Positions 2,895-53,388 of a DNA stretch of 64,000 nucleotides are shown piece after piece (positions within the stretch are counted from its first letter, which is position 1; each line of letters starts with the position of its first letter). Origin of the DNA: Thermodesulfobacteriota bacterium (GTDB lineage Bacteria > Desulfobacterota > Desulfobacteria > Desulfobacterales > JARGFK01). The stretch covers positions 1,110 to 65,109 of the forward strand of contig JBFLWU010000007.1 of NCBI GenBank assembly GCA_040757625.1. The letters run 5' to 3'. Made by a program: the position numbers and the translations under genes. The notes under the pieces were generated by a model. The model was given only the letters and a program-made list of their open reading frames with translations. It had not been told where the DNA came from and made no database searches.

Positions 2895-3096
2895 CACCAC
2901 AGAGGCACAGAGGCCACGGAGAAGCTTTTCTTTTTGCCCATCGGGAGACGGCGATGGGCAAAAACTGCCTTATTAATCAAAGCATTGACGCCGCATAAGT
3001 TAATAGCAGCTACAGGACGCGTATTTAATCCGAACCGGCATCTCCCGGTTCAGATTAATAGATTCACCTCTCTGTGTCCTCTGTGCCTCTGTGGTG
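2895..3096. repeat. RE-A composite element (two inverted half-units)
   Basis: The left half is CACCACAGAGGCACAGAGGCCACGGAG plus hairpin TTTTGCCCATCG-GGAGACGG-CGATGGGCAAAA. The right half is hairpin (C)TGAACCGG-CATCTC-CCGGTTCAG plus CTCTGTGTCCTCTGTGCCTCTGTGGTG. Confidence 0.85.
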
Positions 3097-3101
3097 AAAA
3101 T

Positions 3102-3296
3102 TCAGTTTGCCAGGCGTTTTATGCCCTCTTTCAGCACATGCACATTAAAAATGATCAACAGGCCATGCTTTATACCGGCAATCTTTAGATAGGTCAGCAG
3201 CTGAGCCTCGTGAATCGGCGATATCTGCTCACAGGCCTTCAGTTCGATATTGGCAACATTTCCAAGCTGAGCAGGATTCTTTTCTTCAGCCGGCAT
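3102..3296 (-). pseudogene. truncated duplicate of the GxxExxY gene (C-terminal ~50 codons only)
   Basis: Positions 3101-3253 are near-identical at the DNA level to 3356-3508, the 3' end of the intact gene. The peptide [40 protein letters not shown] is retained. The N-terminal part is replaced by an RE-A half element. Confidence 0.8.
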
Positions 3297-3350
3297 CTCC
3301 CGACTGAAGAAAATATAATCTATCCTCTGTGTCCTCTGTGCCTCTGTGGT
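3271..3350. repeat. RE-A solo half-unit (CAGCCGG-stem subtype)
   Basis: The unit reads GCAGGATTCTTTTCTTCAGCCGG-CATCTC-CCGACTGAAGAAAA...CCTCTGTGTCCTCTGTGCCTCTGTGGT and ends 6 nt from the GxxExxY stop codon. Confidence 0.85.
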
Positions 3351-3356
3351 AAAAAT

Positions 3357-3740
3357 TCAGTTTGCCAGGCGTTTTATGCCCTCTTTCAGCACAGGCACAT
3401 TAAAATTGATCAACAGGCCATGCTTTATACCGGCAATCTTTAGATAGGTCAGCAGCTGAGCCTCGTGAATCGGCGATATCTGCTCACAGGCCTTCAGTTC
3501 GACAATCAGTTTGTCCGCAACAACCAGGTCCAGCCTGTAGCCGCAATCAACCTTCAAGCCTTTATATTCCACGGGCAACTCTTTTTGGCTGACAAAGGGA
3601 ATTTTTCTTAAATCAAGTTCCAGGCAAAGGCAGCGCTCGTAAGCGTTTTCAAGCAAGCCCGGCCCCAAAATCTTGTGGACTTCAATGGCGGCCCCGATTA
3701 CATCGCCGGTCAATTGGTTAATATCGCTATAGCTTTTCAA
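3357..3740 (-). CDS. GxxExxY protein (PD-(D/E)XK nuclease-fold family, TIGR04256/PF13366-like)
   Basis: 127 aa. GxxExxY motif GLLENAY; PD-(D/E)XK-like core [20 protein letters not shown] start 7 nt from a repeat terminus. Confidence 0.85.
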
Positions 3741-3747
3741 ATATAAT

Positions 3748-4126
3748 CACCACAGAGGCACGGAGAACACAGAGGGTACGCTTGTTTATTCGATCGGGAG
3801 ATGCCGATCGAATAAAAATCTGTCCGCTTATGAAAAATACCCTTAGATTTCCTCAGATCTCGATTATTCTTCTTTCAAATATTCAGGAACCGGATTTTGT
3901 TTATATTAAAACAGGATATGTGTTTTATCTGAACCGGCATCTCCCGGTTTAGACTAATAAATTTATCTCTCTGTGCCTTTGTGGTGAAATTATATTGGGC
4001 TGGTTTAAAGAACGCTTTGGGAATTGACAGTTATCAAGTTTTTCCAGGCAGGATCTTTTCTTCAGCCGGCATCTCCCGGCTGAAGAAAATCATTCTATCC
4101 TCCGTGACCTCTGTGTCTCCGTGGTG
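3748..4126. repeat. RE-A composite unit U1 (paired element 3748-3986 plus solo half 4045-4126)
   Basis: CACCACAGAGGCACGGAGAACACAGAGG plus hairpin TTTATTCGATCGG-GAGATG-CCGATCGAATAAA. Next comes hairpin TTATCTGAACCGG-CATCTC-CCGGTTTAGAC and ...CTCTGTGCCTTTGTGGTG. Then 14-bp stem TTTTCTTCAGCCGG-CATCTC-CCGGCTGAAGAAAA and ...CTCTGTGTCTCCGTGGTG. Confidence 0.85.
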
Positions 4127-4137
4127 AATTTAAGAGC

Positions 4138-4809
4138 CTAAATCGAAAACAGCGCCCTTATCTGCTTCACCAGCTTTAAATCGCTCAGGCTCTTTTGCGG
4201 AACGCCGCCCGCCGCCTTGCAGTACAATAACTCGGACAGGCTGCCCCAGAAGCGAACCATCTCCCGGTGGATCAGCTTGCGCCCGCCGGATGAAATCCAC
4301 AGTTTGCCCCGGTCCGCCGGCGGGCTGTATACCTGCACCTTGACGTTCTGACCCAGCAACTGCGCCTTGCACAAAAACAGGGAACGGGGCAGATGATACA
4401 GGGAGGTCACGAGAATGATGGAGCGAAACTGCCTGTCCTTTATGATTTTCCCGGCATAAAAGGCGTTTTCAAAGGTGGTCCGGGCCTTGTCCTCCTTCAC
4501 GACGGTTACGGTGTCCGGCAGCCCATACCGGCGCCGGTAGTTCGCCAGATGGTAGGAATCGGCCTGGGTGACCACCAGGTTGGGGGCATACCCCCGGCCG
4601 GCCAGGTTATAACCGGCTTCCACCCGTTCCCGGAACCCGTTGAATACAACAATGGCATCGGCGTTCGTGAGGCTGGGTTCTTTTTGAATGACGCGATAAA
4701 AATAAATTCCTTCGATGATGAACAGCAGTACGACCGCCGAAGCCGCGTAGAGGCAATATTTAATGATCTTTTTGGCGAGAGTCATGCGTTTACCGCAGAG
4801 AGGCCTCAC
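4138..4809 (-). CDS. DUF218 / YdcF-ElyC-SanA family protein with N-terminal membrane anchor
   Basis: 223 aa with an N-terminal TM helix. DAIVVFNG...GYAPNLVV...TTFENA...ILVTSLYHLPRS is typical of DUF218. An alternative ATG lies at 4785. Confidence 0.75.
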   Translation of the reverse strand: MRPLCGKRMTLAKKIIKYCLYAASAVVLLFIIEGIYFYRVIQKEPSLTNADAIVVFNGFRERVEAGYNLAGRGYAPNLVVTQADSYHLANYRRRYGLPDTVTVVKEDKARTTFENAFYAGKIIKDRQFRSIILVTSLYHLPRSLFLCKAQLLGQNVKVQVYSPPADRGKLWISSGGRKLIHREMVRFWGSLSELLYCKAAGGVPQKSLSDLKLVKQIRALFSI

Positions 4810-4865
4810 GTACTCAGAGGTGATTCATTTCCTAATCGATGGACAGATTCAGAAAAGTGTTTCTT

Positions 4866-5215
4866 ACCGCAGAGGCACAGAGAACGCAGAGGGTACGCTT
4901 GTTTATTCGATCGGGAGATGCCGATCGAATAAAAGCCCTTTCTCTGGATAGCATACGTTTTAACTGAAACGGAATCTCCCTGCTGATGAAAATCATACTC
5001 CCCTCTGTGCCCTCTGTGCCCTCTGTGCCTCTGTGGTGAAATTATATTGGTTAGATTTAAAGAACGCTCTCGGAGTCCTACGCACTGCATTCCAACACAA
5101 TCTCCTTGAGCTTAACAGGGATGATCAATTTTCAGGCAGGATCTATTTCAACAGCCGGCATCTCCCGGCTGATGAAAATTATTCTCCCCTCTGTGCCCTC
5201 TGTGTCTCTGTGGTG
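4866..5215. repeat. RE-A composite unit U2 (homologous to U1, same orientation)
   Basis: It has the same module order as U1, including GGTGAAATTATATTGG...TTTAAAGAACGCT and CAGGCAGGATCT. The terminal octamer CCCTCTGTG occurs three times at 4991-5038. Confidence 0.85.
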
Positions 5216-5338
5216 CATTACAATTTGGAATGTGGATCAGCGGCCGGAGCCGGTCAGGACCCCGCCGGCGGTTTTGAAAAAAATTTTGAAATCGAGTTAC
5301 AATGACTACTTGTAGCTGGAATTAGCAATGTAAATTTG

Positions 5339-11030: not shown

Positions 11031-12260
11031 TCAATCGAGACGAAGACAGGAAGGTATATTACTATCACCAATCATCCAGGTATAAACTTGCTCTAACTGC
11101 GTACTGATGCTTTCCCAGTTAAATCGATCACGCGCAAATACATAAGCCCGCTCACCCATTTTGTGAAGCTCACCTGGCGATAAAGAAAGCATCAGTCGAA
11201 GCCCTTCCTTAAGTCCTTCTTCACTCGAGTCAACTTCATATGCCGCATTAGCCAATACGGCCTCGGGTAGGCCACAAGCACATGTAATCAGGGCACCTTT
11301 ACTCTGTGCAAACCCTTCTAGGAGAGAAACTGGAAAAGCCTCACTATATGATGGCAATACACAGAACTCAGCTGCCCTCAACCAGGCGGTTTTGATATCC
11401 CCGGTCACAAATCCTACAAATAAAACATTCTGTTTTCCAGATCCTAATAGCTGCTCTAATGAAGAGACGTAGTCCGACTCTCCGCTCCCAGCTATAACCA
11501 ACAACCACTCATCAGAAGGACGTAATGCTGACCATGCACGCAATAGACGATCTACGCCTTTAATCGGGTGGAGTCGCCCAAGATAAAGGCAAATACGGCG
11601 ATCACGCACCCAAACTGGTAAGAGTGATAGGGGTTCGGGTATGATCTCTGATTTGACAAACTCAATTCCATTTCCAATCACACAGATGGGTTGACGGATA
11701 CCGAAATAACGTAGTGTCTGGTATTCTACTTCAGTAAGTGCATGATAGCATGTAACATGCTCGAATAATGTCCGCATGAAAGTCATACGAGCCAGCCACT
11801 TTTTCCAGGAAGACACCCTGAGTGCGGTCGGATTAAAATTGCCATGGGCTGTCACCATAAATGGTTTGTCGTGACGAATGCACCAATCGGCTACCACGCG
11901 ATTAGTATGCATCCACACACCATGCATACTGGCCAGGTCCCAGTTGCAATGTTCCTGCTTTAACCAACGGCTCAAGCCTGTTGTGTAGTGTAACGAGTAA
12001 GGTCCATATCGTTGAAAAGCCCGCGCTTCAACTACCCAGCGGTCAAGATCTTTATCACTTGGGCCTTTGGTTCCAACAACCGTTACCTGATGCCCACGTT
12101 TTTGCAACGTTTTAGCTGTCTGCTGCACTGTATGATAAGGTCCGCTGCTTTCGTTGAACAAGCAGCCAGTGACAAAAAGTATTGATTTGGTCCTAATCTT
12201 ATTCGATCTCGAATCGGACAGACATGTATGATTCGCTGCAGAATGTTCTATTACCATCAT
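11031..12260 (-). CDS. glycosyltransferase, GT-B fold (GT4-like)
   Basis: 409 aa. The C-terminal half carries an EX7E-like region (VLPSYSEAFPVSLLEGFA). Confidence 0.75.
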   Translation of the reverse strand: MMVIEHSAANHTCLSDSRSNKIRTKSILFVTGCLFNESSGPYHTVQQTAKTLQKRGHQVTVVGTKGPSDKDLDRWVVEARAFQRYGPYSLHYTTGLSRWLKQEHCNWDLASMHGVWMHTNRVVADWCIRHDKPFMVTAHGNFNPTALRVSSWKKWLARMTFMRTLFEHVTCYHALTEVEYQTLRYFGIRQPICVIGNGIEFVKSEIIPEPLSLLPVWVRDRRICLYLGRLHPIKGVDRLLRAWSALRPSDEWLLVIAGSGESDYVSSLEQLLGSGKQNVLFVGFVTGDIKTAWLRAAEFCVLPSYSEAFPVSLLEGFAQSKGALITCACGLPEAVLANAAYEVDSSEEGLKEGLRLMLSLSPGELHKMGERAYVFARDRFNWESISTQLEQVYTWMIGDSNIPSCLRLD

Positions 12261-31504: not shown

Positions 31505-31787
31505 ATCTTTTAAACATCCAGCGTCGAAGGATAATCCCCATTCGAAGTAATTTTTTTTTAACAGAGTAATTTCAAAAAGTTATGGTTTCCCCCAATAGTT
31601 TAACGGGACGTCGGTGAAGAGAATGCACGGCGAAAAAAGCTGTTAAGCTGATAAAAGAAAACAGGTTAAGATTGAAATGCGGCTGACGGCGCAGGGCGCA
31701 CGGCTCACGGTGCAAAAACAGGGGAAGGCCAAGTACATATTTTCATAAATACGGTTATCTCATTGCCCGTTCGCTGCACTCATTCGA

Positions 31788-32272
31788 GACACAGAGGTCA
31801 CGGAGAAACCTTTCTTTTTGCCCATCGGGAGATGACGATGCATGAAAAAGCCTGAGCCTTCGGTATACTTTTTAGGTTCTTCTCCCAACTAGTTGGGAGA
31901 AAGGATTCCAGGATTCAAGGGGTCCAGGGGCCAAGTGTTTGTTTTCAATCAGTTATTAAATTCCAAGTGCATTTTTCGTCATTATTGCAACAAAAAAAAC
32001 TAAAGGATTTGAAATTCAAGAGCATTTCACTTGAACCCTTGAATCCTCGGCCCCTTGAACCCTTGGGATTCATGTCCAACATTCTTAAAGATGATTTTAC
32101 TCATTTTGCAGAATTAACTACAACTAATCCGGAGATGATACACTTTTTATTATCACCGCATAGACACCGTGTATGCTTATGCGACAAGCGGATATGTGTT
32201 TTTATCTGAACCGGCATCTCCCGGTTCAGATAAACTGATTCACCCCTCTGTGCCCTCTGTGGCTCTGTGGTG
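31788..32272. repeat. RE-A composite element with nested inverted word arms
   Basis: The left half is GACACAGAGGTCACGGAG plus a degenerate hairpin. The interior has palindrome TTCTCCCAAC-TA-GTTGGGAGAA (31879-31900) and CAAGGGG/CCCCTTG word arms (31901-31936 versus 32028-32071). The right half is TTATCTGAACCGG-CATCTC-CCGGTTCAGATAA plus CCCTCTGTGCCCTCTGTGGCTCTGTGGTG. Confidence 0.8.
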
Positions 32273-32433
32273 AAAAACACGTTAGGATATTTCCAAAACA
32301 GAGCATTAAGTATATAGATTTAAAAGAAACAAGTGCAGCGTCTTTATACAGCTCCGCCTTCTGAGTTCCATGAGCAAACCCGGCTTAATATACCAACATT
32401 ATTATATATTTTTAATTAAAATGGAGTTGATGC

Positions 32434-32820
32434 TTAAAACACACGGCCGATTTCATCGGCCGCTTCGTCCTGGGTCAGATCCGCCGGCTCTGCGACATTG
32501 GCCTCCCGGGCCAGCTCGCGGATCTGCTTTTTGATCTCATTGTATTCAAACAGCTTGCGCCTTAAAAAGCTTACGGTCAGGCCGGCCTTGGCCTCCAGGC
32601 CGCTGGGCGTCAGCTTATAAATATACTGCAGTTTATTTTCGGAATCCTTGAAGCGGTTGATTTTAACCAGTCCTTTTTTCGTCAGTTCGGAGAGACAGTA
32701 GTTGACCTTGCCCAGGCTGATGCCCATTTCCCGGGCCATTTCCCGCTGGGTGAAGTCGGGGTTGCGGCTTAGAATCTTGAGCAGCCGGTAGCGGATTTCC
32801 TGCTGGTAATCTGCGTTCAT
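32434..32820 (-). CDS. MarR-family, EPS-associated transcriptional regulator (TIGR04176-like)
   Basis: 128 aa with a winged helix, RYRLLKILSRNPDFTQREMAREMGISLGKVNYCLSELTKKGLVK. Confidence 0.8.
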   Translation of the reverse strand: MNADYQQEIRYRLLKILSRNPDFTQREMAREMGISLGKVNYCLSELTKKGLVKINRFKDSENKLQYIYKLTPSGLEAKAGLTVSFLRRKLFEYNEIKKQIRELAREANVAEPADLTQDEAADEIGRVF

Positions 32821-33118
32821 GACATGAACACTTAAAATAATTAGGGGGTTATGTCAAGGAAAATAAGGCTGAAGGTTGAAGACTCAAGGCCGAAGGAGGA
32901 GTGAACTAATTGCTGATAAGCTGTTAAGCCATAAGGGCCGAGGGTCTAGGACTGAGTTACGAATAAAAGATGATAAAAACACGGCTTACGGCGTACGGCA
33001 AAGGGCAAATGATAAGCTGTTGAGCTGATGAGCCGGTAAGCAAATGGTTCAGGGCTCACAGCTCAGGCCGAATGAAACATGTAAAAAAGCAAGAAAGCTT
33101 GGAGGCTTTAAGGGATTG

Positions 33119-33325
33119 TATTGAACCGCAGAGACGCAAAGGTCGCCGAGTTTCTTATTGTTGCTTTTCGTTGAGAGGACGAAAAGCAAGCAGCTGAAAG
33201 CTCTTTTCATTGCCGGCCCCTCACCGGCAATGAAAATGAATCTTTCTTTGCGTTCTCTGCGTCTCGAGCGAAGCGGGCGGTGAACAAACCAAGGCGCCTC
33301 ACTTGTTACACCTGTCTCCCACCCT
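33119..33325 (+). repeat. RE-B element, long variant
   Basis: AACCGCAGAGACGCAAAGG, then hairpin TTGCTTTTCGT-TGAGAGG-ACGAAAAGCAA, the AGCTGAAAGC box and hairpin CATTGCCGG-CCCCTCA-CCGGCAATG. It ends with ...GCGTCTCGAGCGAAGCGGGCGGTGAA plus a CCTGTCTCCCACCCTTCC tail. Confidence 0.85.
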
Positions 33326-34290: not shown

Positions 34291-34862
34291 ATTGCACCGC
34301 AAAGGCGCAAAGTTAGCAAAGATCATTTTCCTGTTGCTTTTCGCTGAGAAGGCGAAAAGCAATCGTCAACGCCCTTTCAGGGATATAAATTCCCACTGTC
34401 GAGCAAACACCCCTGATCAGAGAACGTGTTTGTTTAATAAAGCTGAAAGCTTTTTCCTTTGGCGTCCTCTCAACGGCAAAGGAAATTTCTTGGCGCCCTC
34501 AGCGTCTCGATCGCAGCGGGCGGTTGATTTCATGCTCTTCTTCAAAGCACTAGTTGGACCAGTATATCCATAGAACCGGCACCGCAAAGGCGCAAAGTTA
34601 GCAAAGATTATTTTCCTGTTGCTTTTCGCTGAGAAGGCGAAAAGCAAACGTCAACGCCCTTTCAGGGATATAAATTCCCACTGTCGAGCAAATGCACCTA
34701 ATACGAACATGTCCGTTTAATAAAGCTGAAAGCTTTTTCCTTTGGCGACCTCTCACCGGCAAAAGAAATTTCTTGGCGCCCTCTGCGTCCTGAGACTATC
34801 GAGCGGTTGATTTCATGCTCTTCTTCAAAACACCGGTTGGAACAGTATATCCATAGAACCGG
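34291..34862 (+). repeat. tandem duplication (periods 285 and 283 bp) of an expanded RE-B element
   Basis: CACCGCAAAGGCGCAAAGTT starts recur at 34295, 34580 and 34863. Each unit has hairpin TTGCTTTTCGC-TGAGAAG-GCGAAAAGCAA, a roughly 90-bp centre and a second hairpin of the type CCTTTGGCG(T)-CCTCTCA-(A)CGGCAAAGG. The array begins 14 nt upstream of the argF ATG. Confidence 0.9.
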
Positions 34863-35435
34863 CACCGCAAAGGCGCAAAGTTGGCAAAGATCATTTTCCT
34901 GTTGCTTTTCGCTGAGAAGGCGAAAAGCGAACATGATCACTTTATAACTTCAGAATCTTCAGGAAGTTCACGTACAACCCTAACGATTCCTTCCCGCATG
35001 AGCGCTACGTTAAAATTTAACAATAATCCCAACTGAAGACCGGACAATTTTAAATAGGTTAATAATTGGGCTTTATGAATCGGTTCGATTTCATTTACCG
35101 ATTTTAATTCAACAATTATTTGATCTTCAACAATGACATCCAACCGGTAACTACAGTCCAGTTTAATACCTTTATACTCAACAAATAACGGTTCCTGCCG
35201 TTTAAATTTTATACCCTTGAGGCTAAACTCACAGCAAAGACATTCCTCATACGTTGATTCAAGCAAACCGGGGCCAAGGTACTTATGAACTTCTATCGCC
35301 GACCCTATTATTTTATTGCTTAATTGATTGATATCCATTGTCAAGTCAATCGACAAGTTGAAAAGCTTTTTCCTTGACGGCCGCTCACCGTCAAGGAAAA
35401 AAATATTTCTCAGCGTCCTCGGCGCCTTTGCGGTG
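34863..35435 (+). mobile_element. RE-B element carrying a GxxExxY gene as cargo (candidate autonomous copy)
   Basis: Perfect 14-bp inverted termini, CACCGCAAAGGCGC (34863-34876) and GCGCCTTTGCGGTG (35422-35435). Hairpin 1 lies at 34904-34928. Hairpin 2, TTTTTCCTTGACGG-CCGCTCA-CCGTCAAGGAAAAA, lies at 35367-35401. Only the GxxExxY ORF lies between them. Mobility is an inference. Confidence 0.6.
34937..35356 (-). CDS. GxxExxY protein (PD-(D/E)XK nuclease-fold family)
   Basis: GLLESTY motif and [17 protein letters not shown] core. It is a paralogue of 3357-3740. The start is TTG 35356 or ATG 35338 (MDINQL). Confidence 0.85.
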
Positions 35436-35440
35436 AACCA

Positions 35441-37747: not shown

Positions 37748-37863
37748 GGACCGCAGAGACGCAAAGGTCGCAGGGTTTCTTATGGTTGCTTTTCGTTGAG
37801 AGGACGAAAAGCAAGCAGCTGAAAGCCCTTTTCATTGCGTTCTCAGCGTCTTTGCGGTGAAAT
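37748..37863 (+). repeat. RE-B element, short copy lacking hairpin 2
   Basis: GACCGCAGAGACGCAAAGG, hairpin 1 and AGCTGAAAGCCCTTTTCATTGC, joined directly to GTTCTCAGCGTCTTTGCGGTGAA. It lies in the argB-hslU spacer. Confidence 0.85.
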
Positions 37864-37919
37864 TAACTTCAGCCTCAACCTTAACCTGTTCTTTCCTTGC
37901 TCCCCCGGCAACCGCTCCC

Positions 37920-39293: not shown

Positions 39294-39357
39294 GATGTTC
39301 GCAGATCTTCACATATTATGGATTTGATGTTTCCTTATATTAAAAGCTTTTGGTTCC

Positions 39358-39513
39358 CACCGCAGAGGCGCAGAGGGCGCAAAGATTATTTTTTCTGTTG
39401 CCTTCTGCTGAGAGGCCGGAAGGCAAACAGGTAAAAGCTTTTTCATTGCCGGCCGCTCACCGGCAATGAAAAATACTATTTACCTCTGCGTTCTCAGCGC
39501 CTTTGCGGTTAAT
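39358..39513 (+). repeat. RE-B element
   Basis: CACCGCAGAGGCGCAGAGGGCGCAAAG, hairpin TTGCCTTC(T)G-CTGAGAGG-C(C)GGAAGGCAA and hairpin CATTGCCGG-CCGCTCA-CCGGCAATG, ending in CTCTGCGTTCTCAGCGCCTTTGCGGT. It lies in the hslU-hslV spacer. Confidence 0.85.
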
Positions 39514-39519
39514 CTTTCT

Positions 39520-40071
39520 CTACAGTTCCTCCACCGTAATCACATTGTTCGTATAGATGCACAGCGATGCCGCAATTTCCATGGCCTGGCGCGCAATATC
39601 GACCGCATCCAGGTCGGCGTATTTCATCAGGGCGGTTGCAGCGGCCTGGGCCGCCATGCCGCCCGAACCGATGGCGATGACATTTTCATCCGGTTCGATC
39701 ACATCGCCGTTGCCGGAAATCAAAAACGTGGCGGCGTGGTCCACGGCGATCATGATGGCCTCGAGCCGGCGCAGGTATTTGTCGGTGCGCCAGTCCCTGG
39801 CCAGCTCAACGGCGCTTCGGGTCAGGTTGCCGTTATAGCGCTCCAGCTTGGTTTCAAGGCGGTCAAAGAGATTGAGCGCGTCGGCGGTGGCCCCGGCAAA
39901 CCCCACGATTATTTTCTCGTTGTACAGCCGGCGGACTTTGCGGGCCTGATGTTTGATGACCGTGTTGTTGAGGGTCACCTGGCCGTCGCCGGCAACCACG
40001 ACCTTGCCCCGGTGCCGCAGCGCCAGGATCGTGGTGCCGTGAAAACTTGCATTATGTTGTTGGTTGCTCAT
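39520..40071 (-). CDS. hslV: ATP-dependent protease subunit HslV
   Basis: 183 aa with [10 protein letters not shown]...GDGQVT. It has a 12-residue extension before the TT catalytic position (see findings). Confidence 0.92.
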
Positions 40072-40127
40072 TATCTGAACCCCATAAGCAATTTTCGGAT
40101 CATGATTTTACAGTATATTACGTGTGC

Positions 40128-40412
40128 ATTTTGTCCGTTGTCTGTTGTACGCTGTCCATCGCCTCGCCGATCTCAAAAATAATTGAACCGCAGAGGCGCA
40201 AAGGTCGCCGAGTTTCTTCTTATGGTTGCTTTTCGTTGAGAGGACGAAAAGCAAGCAGCTGAAAGCCCTTTTCATTGCCGGCCTCTCACCGGCTATGAAA
40301 ATGAATCTTTCTTTGCGTTCTCTGCGTCTCGAGCGAAGCGGGCGGTGAACAAACCAAGGCGCCTCACTTGTCACACCTGTCTCCCGCCCTTCCCGCCTTA
40401 AGCCGTTAGCCT
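40128..40412 (+). repeat. RE-B element, long variant
   Basis: Near-identical to 53113-53388, including the left extension ...CGCCTCGCCGATCTCAAAAATAATTGAACC and the right tail ...CCTGTCTCCCGCCCTTCCCGCCTTAAGCCGTTAGCC. It lies in the hslV-xerC spacer. Confidence 0.85.
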
Positions 40413-40670
40413 TGCGCCGTGAGCCTTCTCTGCCTACTCCCTCCTTTTTCTCAACCTCAAAGCTGGCCTTTCGCCTTTTGCCGCTGATAAGCTGTTGAGC
40501 TGTTCAGGCTTGCAGGCTGAAGGCTGAAGGTTATATCAGTGCCGAGTGACAAAGAACAGAATATTTTGGAGAGATCTTAATATAAACTGTCCCTTGCCAT
40601 AGTCCTTGATCCCGTCTGTTGTTACCTTCAGTCTTTAGTCTATTTACCTTCAGCCTTTCTTTCCGATCCC

Positions 40671-41639
40671 TCACTTGCGCGGATGCGCCTTGTCGTATGT
40701 CTCCATCAGGCGATCGATGCTGACGTGCGTATATTTCTGGGTCGTGGACAGGCTCTTGTGTCCCAAGAGTTCCTGCACCACCCGCAAATCGGCGCCGGCA
40801 TCCAGCAGATGCGTCGCAAAGGAATGGCGCAGCGCGTGCGGCGACACCGGCGTGGCGATGCCGCACGCCAGCCCCGTTTTATCCAGTATCCGCGCAATGG
40901 ACCGGGCCGTCAGCCGGCCGAAGTTTTTATTCATGAACAGGGGGCCGTCATTTTTCAGGCGGCCTCTGCCGGACTTTGCGTTGGTTTCGGCGTCAAGCCG
41001 GTCCCGATAGGAGCGGATGGACGCCACGGCTTTTTGCCCGATGGGGACGATCCGCTCCTTGCTTCCCTTGCCCAAGACGCGAACGACACCCGCGCCGAAG
41101 TCCACGTCCGAAAGATTCATGCCGGCGATCTCCGAAACCCGCAGGCCGCATGAATAGAGCGTCTCAAAGATCGCGCGGTTTCTCAAGCCCAGGAGGCTCT
41201 TGGTATCAATGGAATCCAGCAGGCGGAACATATCGTCCACCGGCAGATACGTCGGTAGGGTTTTGTCCTGTTTCGGCGTCAGGATCGCATCAACCGGATT
41301 CTCCTGCAAGGCGCCGTGTTTGACAAGATACCTGAAAAATGATCGAACGGCCGACAGCTTGCGCGCCACCGTGGCTTTTTGATTTTTCTTATGCAAAATC
41401 CCCAGAAACTCCCTGATCATCAAGCCGTCCACCCGGCAGACGCTGACATTGCCCTCCGCTCCATTCGCATGTCCGTCCAGGTGGCGTTTTTCGGAAACAA
41501 AGGCCGAAAACTCCTCTAGGTCGCGCAGGTAGGCCCGGCAGGTGTTTTCTGAATAGGCTTTTTCCGTGGAAAGCGACTCGACAAAAGACCGAATCAATGT
41601 GTTCAGGTGAGTTGCGCTCATTCGAACCCCGATTGCCAA
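40671..41639 (-). CDS. xerC: tyrosine recombinase XerC/XerD
   Basis: GLRVSE (catalytic R), HALRHSFATHLL (HxxR) and LGHKSLSTTQKYTHV (Y). The xerC-hslV-hslU order is conserved. An alternative ATG lies at 41621. Confidence 0.85.
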   Translation of the reverse strand: MAIGVRMSATHLNTLIRSFVESLSTEKAYSENTCRAYLRDLEEFSAFVSEKRHLDGHANGAEGNVSVCRVDGLMIREFLGILHKKNQKATVARKLSAVRSFFRYLVKHGALQENPVDAILTPKQDKTLPTYLPVDDMFRLLDSIDTKSLLGLRNRAIFETLYSCGLRVSEIAGMNLSDVDFGAGVVRVLGKGSKERIVPIGQKAVASIRSYRDRLDAETNAKSGRGRLKNDGPLFMNKNFGRLTARSIARILDKTGLACGIATPVSPHALRHSFATHLLDAGADLRVVQELLGHKSLSTTQKYTHVSIDRLMETYDKAHPRK

Positions 41640-42431: not shown

Positions 42432-42610
42432 CGCGCCGATCTTAAAAATAATTGAACCGCAGAGGCGCAAAGGTCGCCGAGTTTCTTCTTATGGTTGCTT
42501 TTCGTTGAGAGGACGAAAAGCAAGCAGCTGAAAGCCCTTTTCATTGCCGGCCTCTCACCGGCAATGAAAATGAATCTTTCTTTGCGTTCTCAGCGTCTTT
42601 GCGGTGAAAT
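42432..42610 (+). repeat. RE-B element, canonical short form
   Basis: Terminus at 42456-42473, hairpin 1 at 42495-42523 (loop TGAGAGG), hairpin 2 at 42538-42570 (loop CCTCTCA), and right terminus ...GTTCTCAGCGTCTTTGCGGTGAA ending at 42608. Confidence 0.9.
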
Positions 42611-42691
42611 TAACCTCAGCCTTAACCTCAACCTTCTATTTCCTCACTCCCCGCTGCCCACCGCATAATTTTCCCTGGCTGCTGCTTTTGT

Positions 42692-43131: not shown

Positions 43132-43403
43132 TTTTGTTGTAAACGCCCCACAACCATAACGGCCGGGGCATGTTTTTGAATGCCACTAAATGACGGACTT
43201 GTCAATATGAGACCTTTGCATCACACCCCCTTTCGCTCAATTTCGGCCTCAGGCTCAAATTTTAATCCTCGAAATACACCCGGTATTCCTGTGGTAAAAA
43301 TTTTCGCCTTCCTTGAGCTTGAACGAAATTTGGCGTTTCTCAAAGGCCTCAATCACGCAAGTACCCGCTTCAAGGCGCATGGCAGGAAAAGGCTGCTGTT
43401 GAA

Positions 43404-43510
43404 GAGCTGATAAGCTGTTAAGCTGTTAAGCTTTCTCAACCTCAGCATCAACCTTTATTTATTTCTGCCTACTGCCTACTGCTTACTCCCTACTCCCCAC
43501 TTTTTCCCAA
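43404..43510 (+). repeat. RE-D word-mosaic repeat
   Basis: GAGCTGATAAGCTGTTAAGCTGTTAAGCTTTCTCAACCTCAGCATCAACCTTTATTTATTTCTGCCTACTGCCTACTGCTTACTCCCTACTCC... Partial copies start at about 46185 and 50281, and an inverted copy lies at 56361-56470. Confidence 0.8.
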
Positions 43511-43588
43511 CCTCAGCCTCAACCTTAACCTGCCGTAGGCCTTGGCCGTGCGCCGCTTATTTCAACCCGCAATCCGCAACCTGCTCCC

Positions 43589-44344: not shown

Positions 44345-44560
44345 GGCAATCTCCTTTTCGAGGCCTTTGCAAAACGCCCCCTTTTTACAAAGGTCCTGCT
44401 ATCAGGTTGAAGGGGGAAATCCCCTGAAACAAATTCGGTGTATGACGGAGGACCGGAAAGCACGGTTTCCGTAAATGCCCTCGGTGAAATTCAAAATTCA
44501 ACTATCGAAATTCGAAACCCATTCAAACAACAACATGTCCCAATAATTCAAACCCTGCAA

Positions 44561-44668
44561 TGTCAGCCACACCGACTCTTTGGATCATTTGAATTTCGGT
44601 CATTCGGTATAGTTTCGGGTTTGCGGCTATCGCCTTGAAAAAAGACGGGATTCATGCTTCGGATTTAG
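44561..44668 (+). repeat. RE-C repeat, copy 1
   Basis: TGTCAG...TTTGGATCATTTGAATTTCGGTCATTCGGTATAGTTTCGGGTTTGCGGCTATCGCC..TTGAAAAAAGACGGG. By-eye identity to 48797-48905 is about 80%. Its 3' end overlaps the last codons of the NfeD gene. Confidence 0.75.
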
Positions 44669-46014: not shown

Positions 46015-46358
46015 GGCATATAGACTGAAGACTGAAGACCGAAGACTGAAGGCTAAAGGCATACGACACACGGCACATAAAAGCTGTTGAGCTGATAAGC
46101 TGTTAAGTAAACGGCTAACGGCTCACGGCGCAGGGCGGACGGTAAAGAAACAGGGCTGAGGGCAAAGGACTGAATAACGAATAAGAGCTGATAAGCTGTT
46201 TAGCATTCTCAACCTCAACCTTTTTCTTCAGCCGCGCGCCGTTTGCCGTGTGCCGTTTATTTATTTATTTCTTAGCCTTAGCCTCACCCTTAACCTCATC
46301 CTTTTATTATTGCCGACTGTCTGCCAACCTTCAGCCTTCAGCCCATTTACCTTCGGCC
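46015..46358. repeat. word-array mosaic forming a ~330-bp imperfect palindrome
   Basis: The left side has CTGAAG x4, GGCTAAAGG and ACGGCTCACGGCGCAGGGC. The right side has GCGCGCCGTTTGCCGTGTGCCGT, CCTTAGCC x2 and CTTCAGCC x2, in nested inverted order around position ~46205. Confidence 0.7.
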
Positions 46359-47136: not shown

Positions 47137-47365
47137 ATTCACCGCAAAGACGCTAAGCACGCAAAGATTGTTTACGGTTGCTTTCCGCTGAGACGCCGGA
47201 AAGCAACTGACAGTCATCCTCCGAAAATGCAGACTGCTTCCAACCGAAATCGATTTTCGTGGTTAACAAAGCTGAACGTTTTTCCTTTGCCGCTCTCTCA
47301 ACGGCAAAGGAAATGAACATCCTTTTCTCTGCGACCTTTGCGCCTTGAGCTAAGCGGGCGGTGGG
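47137..47365 (+). repeat. RE-B element, expanded-centre variant
   Basis: TTCACCGCAAAGACGCTAAGCACGCAAAG, hairpin GTTGCTTTCCG-CTGAGACGC-CGGAAAGCAAC, a roughly 80-bp centre and hairpin TTTTTCCTTTGCCG-CTCTCTCA-ACGGCAAAGGAAA. It ends with ...CCTTTGCGCCTTGAGCTAAGCGGGCGGTG. It lies in the UDG-coaBC spacer. Confidence 0.8.
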
Positions 47366-47457
47366 TTTTTCGCATCTGTTCACAGCCAATCTATATCGGA
47401 TTGTCCCAACGCAATCGGTAGGGGCTAAGCGCTCACATACGATAATTTCAGGGAGTG

Positions 47458-48657: not shown

Positions 48658-48796
48658 CGGAACACCGTCTCTTTTTATTTAACGCTTTGATTAAAGCCAT
48701 CCCGGCCCCGAGAACCAAGCCCAGAGAACATGATTTAAACAAACGCAATCGGCAAAATACGAAACCCGAAAATCGAAATTCGGAACAAATGGGCAC

Positions 48797-48905
48797 TGTC
48801 AGATAGGCACACTGTTTGGATCATTTGAATTTTGGCCGTTCGGCATTGTTTCGGATCTGCGGCTATCACCTCTTGAAAAAAAAGGGGTTGGTGCTTCGCA
48901 TTTAA
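48797..48905 (+). repeat. RE-C repeat, copy 2
   Basis: TGTCAG...TTTGGATCATTTGAATTTTGGCCGTTCGGCATTGTTTCGGATCTGCGGCTATCACC..TTGAAAAAAAAGGGG. It lies in the spacer upstream of coaBC. Confidence 0.75.
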
Positions 48906-49560: not shown

Positions 49561-49857
49561 TCATACACGCTTTTTGATCGGGTTTAAAGTTGTATTTTGG
49601 AGTTTTTTTAATTTTTGCAGATTGCGGTACTTCAGCAGAAGGCGCAGCCACGTTTCGAATAAAGCCGAAATATCCCGGGTGCGTGCGTTTTTTTCCGCTT
49701 CAAGTTTTTGCTCCACGTCACGCAGGGCTGCCTTGAAATCCAGCCGATCGGGCTCCCGTTCAATCAGGTGCCGGTAAATCCGGGCGGATTTTTCGAAATA
49801 CCCCTGGTCGGCATAAACTTTTGCCATGGTAGCGGTATAAAATGCGGTTTCATTCAT
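49561..49857 (-). CDS. small TPR-like protein
   Basis: 98 aa. AKVYADQGYFEKSARIYRHLIEREP is a single TPR-like unit. It overlaps the ftsB-like gene by 8 nt. Confidence 0.45.
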   Translation of the reverse strand: MNETAFYTATMAKVYADQGYFEKSARIYRHLIEREPDRLDFKAALRDVEQKLEAEKNARTRDISALFETWLRLLLKYRNLQKLKKLQNTTLNPIKKRV

Positions 49858-50158: not shown

Positions 50159-50224
50159 TGTTACCGCCCGCTACGTCTCACCTGAGTCCTGACAACGGAC
50201 CGCGGACAATTAAACTTTAAAAAC

Positions 50225-50355
50225 GGCATACAACGCACGGCCGGTAAAGGTTGAGGTTAAGGTTAAGGTTAAGAAGCCGTTGAGCTGATAAGCTGTTAAG
50301 CTTTCTCAACCTCGGCCTCATCCTTAACCTCATCCTTTTATTATTGCCTACTGCT
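50225..50355 (+). repeat. word-array / RE-D partial copy
   Basis: AAGGTTGAGGTTAAGGTTAAGGTTAAG, then TTGAGCTGATAAGCTGTTAAGCTTTCTCAACCTCGGCCTCATCCTTAACCTCATCC...TGCCTACTGCTTAC. It abuts the murJ stop codon. Confidence 0.75.
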
Positions 50356-51965
50356 TACTTTCTTCCTACTTCTGTCTCCTGCTCCCCGTCCCCTGCTCCC
50401 TTTTTAGCGAAACGTTTTCCCAGCAGCGACAAGACCATTTCAAGTTCCGGAACCCGGGCCAGGTAGGAGAAAACGCCGTAGCTGACCAGGCCGGCGCCGA
50501 TGGTGACCACCAGGCCCGACAACAGGCGCAGGGCGCTGATATTTCCGCCCGGAATGGCCGCCAGCGCCACGCCCCAGACCGCCACCCCCATGGCCGCCGA
50601 ACATACGACGGTCTTGAGTATGGAATCCCGGGCGACTTCCCATCCCAGGCTCCCCAACCGGGCCCGCAAGACTTTGAGCAGGAGCACGAGATTTACCATG
50701 GCGGCCAGGGATGTCGCCAGGGCCAGGCCGCCATGCCGGAGCCACTGCATTAAAATAACGCTCAGGGCAACGTTGGCAGCCAGAGAAATTGCCGCCATGC
50801 GCACCGGCGTTTTGGTGTCCTTGAGGGCGTAAAAGGTGGACACCACGATTCTGACGGCTGAAATTGCCCATAACCCCACAGCATAATACAAAAGCGCCAT
50901 GGCCGTCATCCGGACGGTCTCCGCGTTAAACGCCCCCCGCTGAAACAGGAGGGCAACAATCGGCTGCCGCAGAACGATCAGGCCGACCATGGCCGGTATC
51001 GTGATATAGGATACCAGGTTCATGGCATATACAAAGGTGGTCCGCAGCGCCGCAAAATCCCGGGCGGCCGCCTGGCGCGAGAGGCTTGGTAAAACCGCCG
51101 TAGCCGTAGCGATGGCAAAAATACCCAGGGGAAATTCAACCAGCCGATCGGCATAATACAGATAGGAGACGCTCCCCTCTGGCAGCAGGGACGCCAGCAG
51201 GGTGCCGATCAGGATGTTGATCTGATAGACCGCAGCCCCGAAAACGGTGGGCAGCATCAACACGCCCACCTGCTTGAGCCCGGGATGATAGAAGCCGGCC
51301 TTTTGCCAGAAACGCAGCCCGTTGCGGATCAGAAACGGAACCTGCAGCAGCAGCTGCAGGGCGCCGCCGATGAGCACACCCACAGCAAGCCCGATGATCG
51401 GCTCGTCAAGATGGGGTGAAATCAGAAAGACCGACCCGATCATGGCGATATTTAAAAAAACCGGCGCCAGGGCCGGCGCGGCAAAGTGGCCGAGCACATT
51501 CAGGATGCCCATGGACAGGGCCACCAGCCCGATGAAAAAAATATACGGAAACATGATCCGGGTCAGGGTCACCGTGAGGGCCAGCTTTTCCGGCGATTCC
51601 GCGAACCCGACCCCGACGATACGGACGATCAGCGGGGACAGCAGGATCCCCAGAACGGCAACCACGGCCAGCAAAACGGAAATCAGCCGCAGCGCCGCCC
51701 GGGCCAGCAGGAAGGCTTCTTCTTTGCCGTTGCGGGCGAGATGGTCCGTAAAAACCGGAATAAAGGCGATGCTTAAGGAACCCTCGGCCAGGAGGCGCCG
51801 GAGCAGATTGGGTATGCGGAATGCCACAAAAAAGGCATCGGACGCCAGCCCGGCGCCGAAAAACCAGGCGACCACCACATCCCGGATAAAACCGAAAATC
51901 CGGCTGAGTAATGTGGCGCCCGCGACAACACCGGCAGCCTTGGTTACACGGATATTTTCAGACAT
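50355..51965 (-). CDS. murJ: lipid II flippase MurJ
   Basis: About 536 aa with LSRIFGFIRDVVVAWFFGAG...DAFFVAFRIPNLLRRLLAEG. I prefer the ATG at 51965. Confidence 0.9.
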   Translation of the reverse strand: MSENIRVTKAAGVVAGATLLSRIFGFIRDVVVAWFFGAGLASDAFFVAFRIPNLLRRLLAEGSLSIAFIPVFTDHLARNGKEEAFLLARAALRLISVLLAVVAVLGILLSPLIVRIVGVGFAESPEKLALTVTLTRIMFPYIFFIGLVALSMGILNVLGHFAAPALAPVFLNIAMIGSVFLISPHLDEPIIGLAVGVLIGGALQLLLQVPFLIRNGLRFWQKAGFYHPGLKQVGVLMLPTVFGAAVYQINILIGTLLASLLPEGSVSYLYYADRLVEFPLGIFAIATATAVLPSLSRQAAARDFAALRTTFVYAMNLVSYITIPAMVGLIVLRQPIVALLFQRGAFNAETVRMTAMALLYYAVGLWAISAVRIVVSTFYALKDTKTPVRMAAISLAANVALSVILMQWLRHGGLALATSLAAMVNLVLLLKVLRARLGSLGWEVARDSILKTVVCSAAMGVAVWGVALAAIPGGNISALRLLSGLVVTIGAGLVSYGVFSYLARVPELEMVLSLLGKRFAKKGAGDGEQETEVGRK

Positions 51966-52230
51966 AGCGATCCACAACGGTTATCCTACCGTTGATTCGG
52001 TTGAATTTCCAAAAACGCGTGAATTTAAGACATCCGTCACTTGGCGCACGGCTAACGGTGCAGGGCGCACAGGAACGACCCGTCCGCCTTTCCCAGAGCC
52101 GTAAGCCGCTTGCCTTATCCCGATTGCCCCCGACACCCTAATCTCAAAATATTCCTTGACATCGAAACCATAATAATTTAGTTAAAAAAATTCTGAAAAC
52201 ACATATTAACTATTTAAGGAGTTATCACCA

Positions 52231-52500
52231 TTGGCAAACCATAAATCCGAAATCAAACGTGCGCGTCAGAATGCCGATCGGCATGATCGTAACAAGGCGG
52301 TCAAAACCGGCGTCAAAAACATCACCAAAGCGGTTCGCCAGGCGGCTGCCGAGAAGTCTAAGGAAGAAGCGATCAAAGAACTGAACGCTGCAAAATCAAT
52401 CATCGACAAGGCGTCCAAGAAAAAGGTCATCCCCAAAAAAACGGCTGCCCGCAAAATTTCCCGCCTTGCCAAACGCGTCAACCGCATGACGACCAGCTAA
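52231..52500 (+). CDS. rpsT: 30S ribosomal protein S20
   Basis: 89 aa (ANHKSEIKRARQN...). TTG start with AAGGAG at 52216-52221. The 3' end overlaps lptE tail-to-tail by 4 nt. Confidence 0.92.
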   Translation: MANHKSEIKRARQNADRHDRNKAVKTGVKNITKAVRQAAAEKSKEEAIKELNAAKSIIDKASKKKVIPKKTAARKISRLAKRVNRMTTS

Positions 52501-53015
52501 AAATCCTCGGTCAACCGATAATAAATATTTTCAGCCAGCCGCTTGGAAAGCGCCGATACGGCTGCGCGTCTGTTGACGTCCGTCGCCTGGCTGTCGGACG
52601 CGACCCGATAGCTTTCACTGTCGGCGAGTCCCTGCAAAGACCACACCGCCCTGCCGTTCCGATCGGTCAGCTTCAAATCAACTGAGATGGTTACCCGTCT
52701 TTCCAGGGAGCTGTGCTGCCCGCTGCGCGATATGGTTTCCACCCGCAGTGATTTGACCGTACCGGAAAGAACGGCGTCGGCATCTTCGGGGGTCGCGCTG
52801 CGGTTATAGCGGATGAACTCATACCGGAGGTCGCCGGTGAGTGTGTTTTCCAAACCGGTTTCGGACGTGCGGTTGTCGAGCTGATGGATGAAAACCCGCT
52901 GGATTCCGGCGGGGAGACTCCCGCTGCCTGAAAAACGATAGCCGCAGCTCGATAAGAGCATGACGGCCGCCGCCAGTGCCCAGCTGATCCATCTGTTCTG
53001 AAAGCAATTAAACAT
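52497..53015 (-). CDS. lptE: LPS-assembly lipoprotein LptE
   Basis: 172 aa with lipobox LLSSCGYRF. It sits in the conserved position downstream of leuS. Confidence 0.7.
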   Translation of the reverse strand: MFNCFQNRWISWALAAAVMLLSSCGYRFSGSGSLPAGIQRVFIHQLDNRTSETGLENTLTGDLRYEFIRYNRSATPEDADAVLSGTVKSLRVETISRSGQHSSLERRVTISVDLKLTDRNGRAVWSLQGLADSESYRVASDSQATDVNRRAAVSALSKRLAENIYYRLTEDF

Positions 53016-53112
53016 AATTAAAACGCCTCTTTCGAAGGGGCCAGGGTTCAGGTTTCAGGGATCAGCTTTGAATGATTCGCTCACCGTTGTCCCTTTGTCG
53101 AGGCATCCTGTC

Positions 53113-53388
53113 GGTTACTTGTTGTCCGTTGTTCATTGCCTCGCCGATCTCAAAAATAATTGAACCGCAGAGGCGCAAAGGTCGCCGAGTTTCTTATGGT
53201 TGCTTTTCGTTGAGAGGACGAAAAGCAAGCAGCTGAAAGCCCTTTTCATTGCCGGCCTCTCACCGGCGATGAAAATAAATCTTTCTTTGCGTTCTCTGCG
53301 TCTCAAGCGAAGCGGGCGGTGAACAAACCAAGGCGCCTCACTTGTCACACCTGTCTTCCGCCCTTCCCGCATTAAGCCGTCAGCCTTT
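53113..53388 (+). repeat. RE-B element, long variant
   Basis: See 40128-40412. It lies in the leuS-lptE spacer. Confidence 0.85.

Follow-up and report, generated by a model that had tools for sequence, protein, structure and literature searches.

Small selfish elements bounded by inverted repeats with structured ends are a known kind of genomic repeat, and it is to this kind that we rate RE-A and RE-B as belonging, two repeat families dispersed through a 64-kb stretch of the genome of a Thermodesulfobacteriota bacterium (contig JBFLWU010000007.1, positions 1,110 to 65,109; the window from here on). Among the systems already described, the intervening sequences (IVS) of rRNA genes that carry an S23p open reading frame (ORF), found in Leptospira and Coxiella, have a horizontal and sporadic distribution, and their mobility is unexplained (PMC4990558). 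RE-A and RE-B resemble the 23S rRNA IVS in being small selfish inserts with complementary termini, with or without a small central ORF, of similarly horizontal and sporadic distribution and unexplained mobility, and the ORF family PF05635 is the cargo of a sister type here (positions 166-540 of the window, and L266 among the loci compared outside it, which we cite by L numbers). They differ in lying between protein-coding genes, not in rRNA helix 9, 25 or 45 (the window contains no rRNA), in their tandem 8-9-mer arrays with TCACC/GGTGA ends, and in their main cargo, a predicted PD-(D/E)XK nuclease. We know of no description of subterminal covarying hairpins in IVS. The analysis presented here indicates that RE-A and RE-B are deletion derivatives, i.e., gene-less copies resembling miniature inverted-repeat transposable elements (MITEs) together with solo halves, of a selfish cassette of ~0.5 kb that carries a GxxExxY gene and has termini shared across phyla, and that their hairpin is an optional, lineage-restricted module of this cassette. 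Both points had been missed by the initial annotation, which had described the hairpins from the sequence.

The other systems that come to mind match the elements only in part. Like MITEs and the ERIC, Correia and REPIN repeats, these are non-coding inverted repeats of 50-250 bp with many near-identical copies in the intergenic regions of operons, related by internal deletion to a longer gene-bearing form and able to adopt stable folds; as in MITEs they are short and dispersed in many copies, here with TCACC(CRCAGAGG)n inverted termini. Unlike in MITEs, no target-site duplication has been seen and no recognised transposase family is encoded by the gene-bearing form, the termini are near-identical over many phyla, which is unusual, and each end combines an array with a hairpin. 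With the attC sites of integrons they share the conservation of the folded structure in place of the stem sequence, and co-oriented small cassettes (toxin-antitoxin pairs and small ORFs at L263-L268) are also reminiscent of integrons. However, RYYYAAC/GTTRRRY cores are absent (the termini read ACCRCAGAGG / CCTCTGYGGT), as are the pattern of extrahelical bases and a nearby integrase, the sole tyrosine recombinase seen being a housekeeping-type XerC (40671-41639), and the elements are scattered among housekeeping genes, each with two hairpins plus tandem-repeat termini. The sites used by rolling-circle and HUH enzymes (in CRESS-DNA viruses, geminiviruses, rolling-circle plasmids, IS200/IS605 and REP/RAYT) combine tandem repeats with a stem-loop at fixed spacing, whose loop is conserved and whose stem is variable. 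The ends of RE-A and RE-B look alike in all these respects, but their partner is a PD-(D/E)XK protein, with no associated HUH/Rep or Y1 transposase gene, and they are inverted, with hairpins on opposite strands, whereas IS200/IS605 has them on the same strand at both ends. As for REP/RAYT, no Y1 HUH transposase was present among the array-adjacent ORFs of ~270 loci, and the conserved part is here the loop and not a 5' tail. The short tandemly repeated repetitive (STRR) sequences of cyanobacteria are intergenic tandem arrays of short heptamers; the intergenic tandem 7-9-mers described here are similar, and we regard the link as a lead. To our knowledge, no description of STRR has them as inverted pairs around a nuclease gene or with covarying hairpins. 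None of the systems compared (IVS, MITE/ERIC/Correia, attC, iteron-hairpin origins) fits as a family, and in our partial coverage of the literature we found no description of the octamer termini, the GxxExxY cassettes or the hairpin module, which is an absence of evidence.

Read from the outside inward, an end of RE-A or RE-B consists of (T)CACC, 2-4 tandem octamers (CACAGAGG in RE-A; CGCAGAGG or CGCAAAGG in RE-B), a short T-rich spacer and a hairpin, and the opposite end repeats the same series inverted. The suggestion of the initial annotation that RE-A and RE-B share one architecture is supported. The stem of the hairpin module, 11-15 bp long, is T-rich in its 5' arm, A-rich in its 3' arm and CSG/CSG at the top, and the loop of 6-7 nt contains (T/G)GAG; the two hairpins of an RE-B copy are designated hp1 and hp2. 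At least 14 complete or long copies and three solo halves are found in the 64 kb, with identical orientation in all 17. Complete gene-less elements measure 150-240 bp, and the copies at 33120, 40182, 42451 and 53159, four unrelated loci, are 93-94% identical. A loop-agnostic scan of the window (perfect stem of at least 8 bp, loop of 4-10) returned 27 perfect hairpins, 19 of which belong to RE-A or RE-B, with stems of 9-14 bp. At a stem length of at least 11 bp there were 18 perfect hairpins, all of them RE-A or RE-B, where 0.05 were expected; block shuffles preserving composition (n = 20) contained none in 19 cases and one in the remaining case. Around 12 distinct stem sequences are present within the window. 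The hairpins cited in the initial annotation are where it had placed them (2931-2964, 3785-3816, 4902-4933, 4056-4089 and 32201-32234), and the near-copy it mentioned at 3925 is present as an imperfect hairpin; comparison of the window with itself added RE-B copies at 34296-34527, 34581-34812 and 34864-35439.

The initial annotation had also proposed that the stems change by compensatory substitutions, a claim open to statistical test. We aligned every right-context motif site from the module-carrying loci, whatever the quality of its stem (MAFFT, gap-free), and counted pairs for the named helix. In the B-type alignment (n = 30) 90.5% of the cells were paired, against 65.6+-1.6% after shuffling, cells changed on both sides numbered 103 (shuffled, 36.4+-4.4), the covariation score was 0.62 (0.18) and both sides change in all 14 pairs. 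None of the five observed measures was reached in any of the shuffles (0/500), counts that, here and for the A-type, are not probabilities because the aligned sequences are mutually related. Sliding the partner by 1-3 columns left only 43-56% of the cells paired, with scores of 0.10-0.19. The A-type alignment (n = 15) behaved similarly, with 90% of the cells paired (shuffled, 70.9%), 45 cells changed on both sides (12.8) and a score of 0.58 (0.19), and neither the observed pairing nor the score was reached in any of the shuffles (0/500). That pairing is kept while both sides of the stem change is borne out by the shuffle controls in both alignments and by the sliding of the B-type. Nor are the stem variants a few clonal subfamilies, since more than 25 distinct arms occur, some of them wholly unrelated, in several genomes and phyla. 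Unrelated arms are found in a Thermodesulfovibrionales metagenome-assembled genome (MAG; L120, TTATATATTTCTGC and TTTTGTTTTCCGG), in a viral contig (L153) and in the metagenome contigs L229, L232, L233, L236, L263 and L266. Stems that are otherwise the same repeatedly differ, in several genomes, by the swap of one pair, as in TTGCTTTTCG/CGAAAAGCAA vs TTGCTTTCCG/CGGAAAGCAA.

The loop had been described as constant. This holds for the core (T/G)GAG, and for one further G in the B-type, although the invariance of (T/G)GAG in the alignments is partly imposed by how the sites were selected; the remaining letters of the loop vary. The loops of hp1 are TGAGAGG, TGAGAAG or CTGAGACGC, those of hp2 CCCCTCA, CCGCTCA, CCTCTCA or CTCTCTCAA, and those of RE-A GAGATG or GGAGACGG, or the complement. 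The loop-agnostic scan recovered the core in 19/19 RE hairpins of the window, and the core is also present in most of the array-adjacent T-rich/A-rich hairpins outside it, L232 3701 (loop AAAC) being an exception. The distance from the terminus is fixed, as previously claimed: over ~30 unique ends of the window and of the related loci compared, the motif stands 47-52 nt from ACC, nearly always with a long perfect stem, and where it occurs at other distances there is no stem (3 bp or less). When motif matches were selected by context only (8-45 nt past an octamer array, irrespective of stem), a perfect stem of at least 6 bp accompanied 26 of the 137 unique matches, against 19 of 14,269 elsewhere; among these 19, eight that were inspected and had stems of at least 9 bp are RE-type hairpins beside degenerate arrays. 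The loop core and its distance to the terminus stand out by a conservation far above that of stem, spacer and interior, contrary to what would be expected if the loop were no better kept than its flanks. The loop type follows that of its own array, TGAGA going with CGCAGAGG/CGCTGAGA and GGAGA with CACAGAGG/CACGGAGA, with exceptions in L232 and L264.

The parent of these repeats is present in the window itself, where a GxxExxY gene (34937-35341) lies between hp1 and hp2 of the RE-B copy 34864-35439. Short RE-B copies equal this element minus the gene, and long copies retain an interior of ~90 bp; L233 and L235 show hp1 followed by the gene, as in the window copy (hp1 side only). The ancestral unit is TCACC, 2-4 tandem 8-9-mers (usually CRCAGAGG), one GxxExxY gene, the inverted array and GGTGA, ~0.5 kb altogether, and the solo halves are leftovers of recombination between arrays. 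The cargo is a GxxExxY protein of 125 aa from the PD-(D/E)XK family, with a predicted Cas4/RecB-like fold. The two GxxExxY proteins of the window match TIGR04256 with 155 and 153 bits (the latter for 34937-35341) vs a cutoff of 35, and the match to PF13366 (PDDEXK_3) has an E-value of 1e-44. The catalytic D...ELK motif is intact, with D68, E78 and K80 invariant in the alignment. Four cysteines (C34, C36, C63 and C82) are invariant or nearly so in the clade of the 34937-35341 protein, and some of them are absent in Bacteroides homologues; judging by sequence, they may point to a metal or Fe-S centre of the kind present in Cas4. The structure is predicted with a pLDDT of 88, and its best structural matches are Cas4 and lambda exonuclease. 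The gene-bearing form contains no recognised transposase family, its gene being the predicted PD-(D/E)XK nuclease. A sequence search of the PDB with the cargo protein gave no match, the exact sequences of the window protein and of P0001 are not on record, and BLAST found no match for the cargo protein in cultured phages or for RE-B in plasmids. A single search returned at least 7,900 GxxExxY relatives. The contigs that encode close relatives are mostly shorter than 3 kb, which would fit array repeats breaking metagenome assemblies.

The termini extend far beyond this genome. With one genome per species, the terminus ACCRCAGAGGCRCARAGG was found at at least 120 loci, and the matches listed include Cyanobacteria, Planctomycetota, Acidobacteriota, Chloroflexota, Verrucomicrobiota, Bacteroidota, Gemmatimonadota, Chlamydiota, Myxococcota and Proteobacteria; many of them are in Nostoc and Anabaena, beside other tandem arrays. 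By chance, an 18-mer would have ~140 matches in 596 Gb, but the matches found are real because nearly all run into a third unit and many have an inverted partner 45-160 bp off. IMG/VR contributed 105 additional matches. The dominant layout over the loci is a short palindromic element (left array, 8-130 bp, right array), and gene-sized gaps fall between successive elements. Over the ~270 loci surveyed, GxxExxY was the sole protein family that recurred beside arrays in unrelated loci (14 loci). The canonical layout (array, 1-41 nt, gene, 23-56 nt, inverted array) is seen at L051, L065, L075, L094, L252 and L271, in hosts comprising Planctomycetia, Thermomicrobiales, Prevotella, Phycisphaerales and a Bacteroides finegoldii isolate, and in a Gemmatirosa replicon arrays flank the gene on both sides in a different arrangement. 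Gene-bearing copies with the same ends as the window elements are, besides 34864-35439, those of L051, L065, L094 and L271. The bare cassette is found in Bacteroides, Planctomycetota, Chloroflexota, Gemmatimonadota, Cyanobacteria and phage contigs, and the hairpin module is an addition in one lineage, seen in Thermodesulfobacteriota, the Thermodesulfovibrionales MAG and one viral contig.

Filled and empty sites bear on the insertion of these cassettes. The radA-FAD junction is a spacer of 20 nt in B. thetaiotaomicron (empty) and of 66 nt in another relative. In B. finegoldii (L271/L272; further loci for this site are L273 and L274-L277) it is occupied by a cassette of 0.48 kb, which begins directly behind the stop codon of radA and ends 2-6 nt ahead of the following ATG. 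At the same junction, a metagenome contig with a flanking protein of 99% identity has a different cassette, with a GxxExxY protein only 60% identical and, in both arms, the array unit CACAGATTA where B. finegoldii has CACAGAGGA; TCACC/GGTGA are kept. Protein and array unit (GAGGA vs GATTA) thus change together. No duplication was seen between filled and empty radA-FAD sites, the spacers of which are unalignable, and the dinucleotides beside ACC/GGT are direct in some copies and inverted in others. What separates L263 from L264, and L266 from L268, is recombination between repeated halves or arrays, with a 12-bp GCGCAGAGATAT repeat, and recombination of this kind accounts for the solo halves of the window. 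We infer mobility from the dispersed copies with 93-94% identity and from the filled and empty sites, no transposition footprint having been seen. A speculative and on balance unlikely extension would be an autonomous element of a new kind, of ~0.5 kb, in which the Cas4-like nuclease reads its own arrays and, in the lineage with hairpins, cuts or pairs at a loop recognised by structure, and which spreads by way of intergenic spacers across phyla and phages, leaving MITE-like progeny, with four-helix-bundle cassettes sharing the vehicle. If true, the GxxExxY cassette of ~0.5 kb would be the smallest known autonomous mobile element, and the way in which rRNA IVS move would be explained.

What the hairpin does is a separate matter. 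We tentatively favour the idea that it acts as DNA, single-stranded or in a cruciform, showing an octamer-like motif to a protein that binds the arrays. The hairpin would extrude as a cruciform or form in single-stranded DNA, and its loop would then show, unpaired, a motif like one array unit (TGAGAGG vs CAGAGG/CTGAGA; GGAGAY vs CGGAGA), so that a factor binding the tandem units, probably the predicted nuclease of the element, could mark the end, or cut it, at a set distance. The logic would resemble that of the iterons plus nick-hairpin of rolling-circle origins and of the structure-read attC of integrons. Several observations point in this direction. The ends are two-fold symmetric, being equivalent in array, spacing, hairpin and loop orientation, and a single transcript would contain two different loops. 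G.U-type pairs are rare (~5/420 cells in the B-type, ~8/210 in the A-type), departures from pairing being mostly plain mismatches, and transition (wobble-type) mismatches are not strand-polarised (6 vs 6, in a noisy scan with 9 of 12 pairs, of which only clear family members were used). The terminal arrays have no G.U polarity either (139 vs 128.7+-9.6, not significant). The orientation relative to the flanking genes is opposite between the window and L263/L266, and as single-stranded DNA both strands fold into a three-way junction (z of -5 to -8), with a terminal stem of 13 bp in the folds. That the cargo is a predicted nuclease may be counted on the same side, as may the lack of covariation between the loops of one element and the GNA mini-hairpin motif in one variant of the right terminus.

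Other facts weigh against this idea. Most members of the family in other phyla have no hairpin, which is thus not essential to the basic element, and the structural match to Cas4 is weak (E 0.016-0.1). Neither an excision product nor a clean transposition event nor a target-site duplication was seen at the copies and sites compared, and recombination between repeated arrays or halves accounts for every polymorphism between close genomes. The likeness of loop to array, and the pairing of A and B loops with their arrays, may be just shared descent. Being located within operons, the elements are presumably transcribed, which brings RNA-level roles into play. Stem-loops in the operon transcript could serve for protein binding, processing or stabilising and insulate the inserted gene, the arrays pairing to form a stem for RNase III to cleave, like that of 23S rRNA IVS. 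We consider this possible but rather unlikely. The strictly intergenic position within co-oriented operons and the one orientation of all 17 window copies and halves are what it would lead one to expect, a conserved loop on hairpins with free stem sequence is typical of RNA-protein sites, terminal GGTGA stands 5-13 nt ahead of start codons in several cases, and the sister family PF05635 is the ORF of the rRNA IVS, in which RNase III cleaves the inverted repeats at the ends (PMC4990558). It is at odds with the near absence of G.U pairs and the wobble-type mismatches without strand polarity, and with the orientation relative to transcription, which differs between genomes. Moreover, UGAGAGG and CCUCUCA would be different objects in one RNA, yet they are conserved by symmetry and without covariation, start codons are not generally enriched after the termini, and no Rfam family matches (0 matches in the whole window at gathering thresholds, and chance-level ones in E-value mode for 39300-40420). 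Transcription terminators, intrinsic and bidirectional, are hardly credible. GC-rich stem tops flanked by T and A runs are suggestive of them, and 2 of ~20 hairpins were flagged by a terminator scan, but both passes are due solely to fortuitous T-rich flanks, and on both strands the T-run comes before the stem and the A-run after it, the reverse of a terminator. This geometry and the scan rule them out; in addition, the genes on either side of the hairpins are co-transcribed housekeeping genes, hslV-hslU for example, and a conserved loop is not a terminator feature.

The initial annotation had further inferred selection on structure plus loop. Pairing is indeed kept while both sides change at all stem positions, but the copying of one arm from the other by template switch or fold-back yields the same pattern, and perfect arms could be regenerated mechanically instead of being selected. 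The hairpins would then be palindromes without function, made by fold-back or template-switch synthesis or by arm-to-arm conversion around a fixed centre, with only the central motif and the arrays constrained. Stems of different subfamilies do differ at most positions and not by single steps, copies that are young pair perfectly and ordinary mismatches erode the old ones (e.g., ~4953-4992 and 31813-31848), the 5' arm resembles the T-rich post-array spacer of hairpin-less relatives, and few G.T intermediates are seen, which is what the copying of one arm from the other should give. We nevertheless find this explanation quite improbable, since the geometry of the module (11-15 bp, CSG, T-/A-rich arms, 47-52 nt) is kept across phyla where spacer and interior have diverged, and single-pair swaps recur in otherwise identical stems of several genomes; we know of no such process at a fixed internal site. 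Even less probable is a kissing complex, in RNA or single-stranded DNA, in which the two hairpins of one element join via complementary 7-nt loops. The complementarity of the two loops of an RE-B copy, noted from the outset, is exact in three of the nine window copies (and in copies of L120, L153 and L266) and inexact in the other six, without loop covariation; the TGAG/CTCA cores are always complementary, and the three-way-junction fold could bring the loops together. However, complementarity follows trivially from the inverted-repeat symmetry of the two ends, the loop is retained in solo halves, and loop variants never compensate (TGAGAAG with CCTCTCA or CCGCTCA, TGAGAGG with CCCCTCA, TGAGCGG with CGTCTCA).

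These results give a setting to two very large cross-phylum families of no known function, GxxExxY (PF13366/TIGR04256) and PF05635, as cargo of array-bounded cassettes with abundant gene-less derivatives, and thereby a testable biology as selfish elements. The array duplex together with the loop-specific hairpin is a concrete nucleic-acid substrate for biochemistry, the elements tie in with the unexplained mobility of rRNA IVS, and the hairpin module would be a clean natural case, comparable to attC, of a site read by shape plus a few loop bases.

The RE-A copies of the window, like the RE-B copies below, are all on the + strand. Copy 1 (2894..3097), complete and gene-less, reads TCACC-(CACAGAGG)x3 ... 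(CCTCTGTG)x3-GGTGA; its left hairpin (2931..2964) has a perfect 13-bp stem TTTTTGCCCATCG and the loop GGAGACGG, 48 nt from ACC, and its right hairpin (3024..3057, loop CATCTC) is imperfect. A duplicated 3' fragment of a GxxExxY gene (3097..3247, - strand) abuts an RE-A right terminus and is followed by a solo right half (3271..3350) with the hairpin TTTTCTTCAGCCGG/CATCTC (one mismatch) and the terminus, and by the A-type GxxExxY gene (TIGR04256/PF13366; 3357..3740, - strand), the start of which is 6 nt past a terminal GGTGA. Copy 2 (3747..3987) is complete, with hairpins at 3785-3816 (GAGATG) and ~3924-3953 (CATCTC). Another solo right half (4048..4126) bears the hairpin 4056-4089, with a perfect 14-bp stem and the loop CATCTC; copy 3 (4864..5039), also complete, has a hairpin at 4902-4933 and a degenerate right one at ~4953-4992, and the last solo right half (5136..5213) has its hairpin at ~5143-5178. 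The junction of the RE-A right terminus with the 3' end of the GxxExxY gene is itself duplicated (3097-3247 vs 3352-3502, 92% identity), and the spacers 3988-4047 and 5040-5135 look like decayed gene 3' ends, which suggests repeated deletion or recombination inside the tandem RE-A cluster. A long RE-A copy (31786..32273) contains an interior of ~0.3 kb set between inverted arrays of another kind (GGATTCAAGG type), with a decayed left hairpin (~31813-31848) and a right one at 32201-32234. The RE-A clusters 2894-5213 and 31786-32273 bound on both sides a low-GC island (6000-32000; 35-44% vs 50-58%) of polysaccharide-type genes, and a MarR_EPS regulator is encoded at 32434-32820.

The RE-B copies follow. 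That at 33123..33284 has hp1 at 33161-33189 (TGAGAGG), hp2 at 33204-33236 (CCCCTCA) and a right terminus with GCGAAGC. The long copy 34296..34527 (hp1 34334-34362, TGAGAAG; ~90-bp interior; hp2 ~34452-34486) has a tandem duplicate at 34581..34812 (hp1 34619-34647, hp2 ~34735-34768), and next to it the gene-bearing 34864..35439 is made up of the left array, hp1 (34904-34928), the GxxExxY gene on the - strand, hp2 (35367-35401) and the right array-GGTGA. A truncated copy (37750..37858) has hp1 at 37786-37814 and is without hp2. Between hslU and hslV there is a copy at 39359..39512 (hp1 ~39397-39428, with a T.G; hp2 39439-39473), followed by those at 40187..40348 (hp1 40226-40254; hp2 ~40267-40301, one mismatch) and 42456..42608 (hp1 42495-42523; hp2 42538-42570), the latter folding as single-stranded DNA into a three-way junction. 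The last two are a long copy at 47141..47366 (hp1 47177-47207, loop CTGAGACGC; hp2 47281-47313, loop CTCTCTCAA) and the copy 53164..53323 (hp1 53200-53228; hp2 ~53243-53275, one mismatch).

Some ends depart from the common plan. A variant of the right terminus contains a 16-nt insert with GCGAAGC, GCGCAGC or GCGTAGC (GC-GNA-GC), on one strand only, at 33262-33284, 40325-40348, 53300-53323 and 47345-47366 of the window, L232 320-360 and L266 9965-9990. We take GC-GNA-GC to be the very stable DNA mini-hairpin motif, which occurs in single-stranded DNA origins. In other copies (L240 ~380-440; L247 ~1815-1850; L263 9490-9565 and 9870-9965; L266 10420-10475; L039) a nested hairpin or an insert of 40-70 nt right after TGA splits the loop, leaving the outer stem intact. 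The terminal pairing of all termini is AACCGCAG / CUGCGGUU (e.g., 40185-40194 / 39500-39512 of the window; L012, L022), which equals the stem of 16S rRNA helix 45 (AACCGUAG / CUGCGGUU in E. coli) and is possibly a coincidence. GGTGA(A/T) lies 5-13 nt upstream of the next start codon at 3740 and 4786 of the window, L263 10001, L266 10001 and L271 814, where it is a possible Shine-Dalgarno sequence. A general role of the terminus as Shine-Dalgarno donor was rejected, as downstream start codons were not enriched over 622 termini (277/622 vs 243/622). In some right flanks GGTTCGAATC is tRNA T-loop-like, maybe by coincidence.

The PF05635/TIGR02436 four-helix-bundle gene of the window (166..540, - strand) has on both sides inverted arrays built from another short unit (~100-165 and 575-650; GGTTGAGG/GCTAAGG vs CCTTAACC/CCTTAGCC), and gene and arrays together are a sister cassette type. 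The same unit is also found after two RE-B right termini (37859-37900 and 42609-42650). Another four-helix-bundle gene, in L266, is bracketed by GCTGGGAA units, 12 tandem copies of which lie downstream (12090-12195). In L268 (11863-12158, vs L266 11870) a four-helix-bundle gene is interrupted by the insertion of a 0.3-kb mini-element that has GGCTCCGCCCCGTAGGGCG-type ends and codes for a small GIY-YIG nuclease. The polysaccharide operons of the related genomes L263-L268 are broken by many co-oriented small cassettes (e.g., L266 770-4730, 13071, 18812 and 19303), with HEPN/MNT, HepT, HicAB, ParE, PIN, GxxExxY and four-helix-bundle genes, between which a palindrome of constant stem, ATAAATTTTTC-NNN-GAAAAATTTAT, recurs. 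Lastly, self-comparison of the window brought out at least two further intergenic repeat families unrelated to RE-A and RE-B, with copies at 43384-43556, 50254-50385, 56352-56507, 46051-46285, 53380-53487, 32980-33070 and 31626-31736, as well as at 44557-44667 / 48793-48904 and 56-134.

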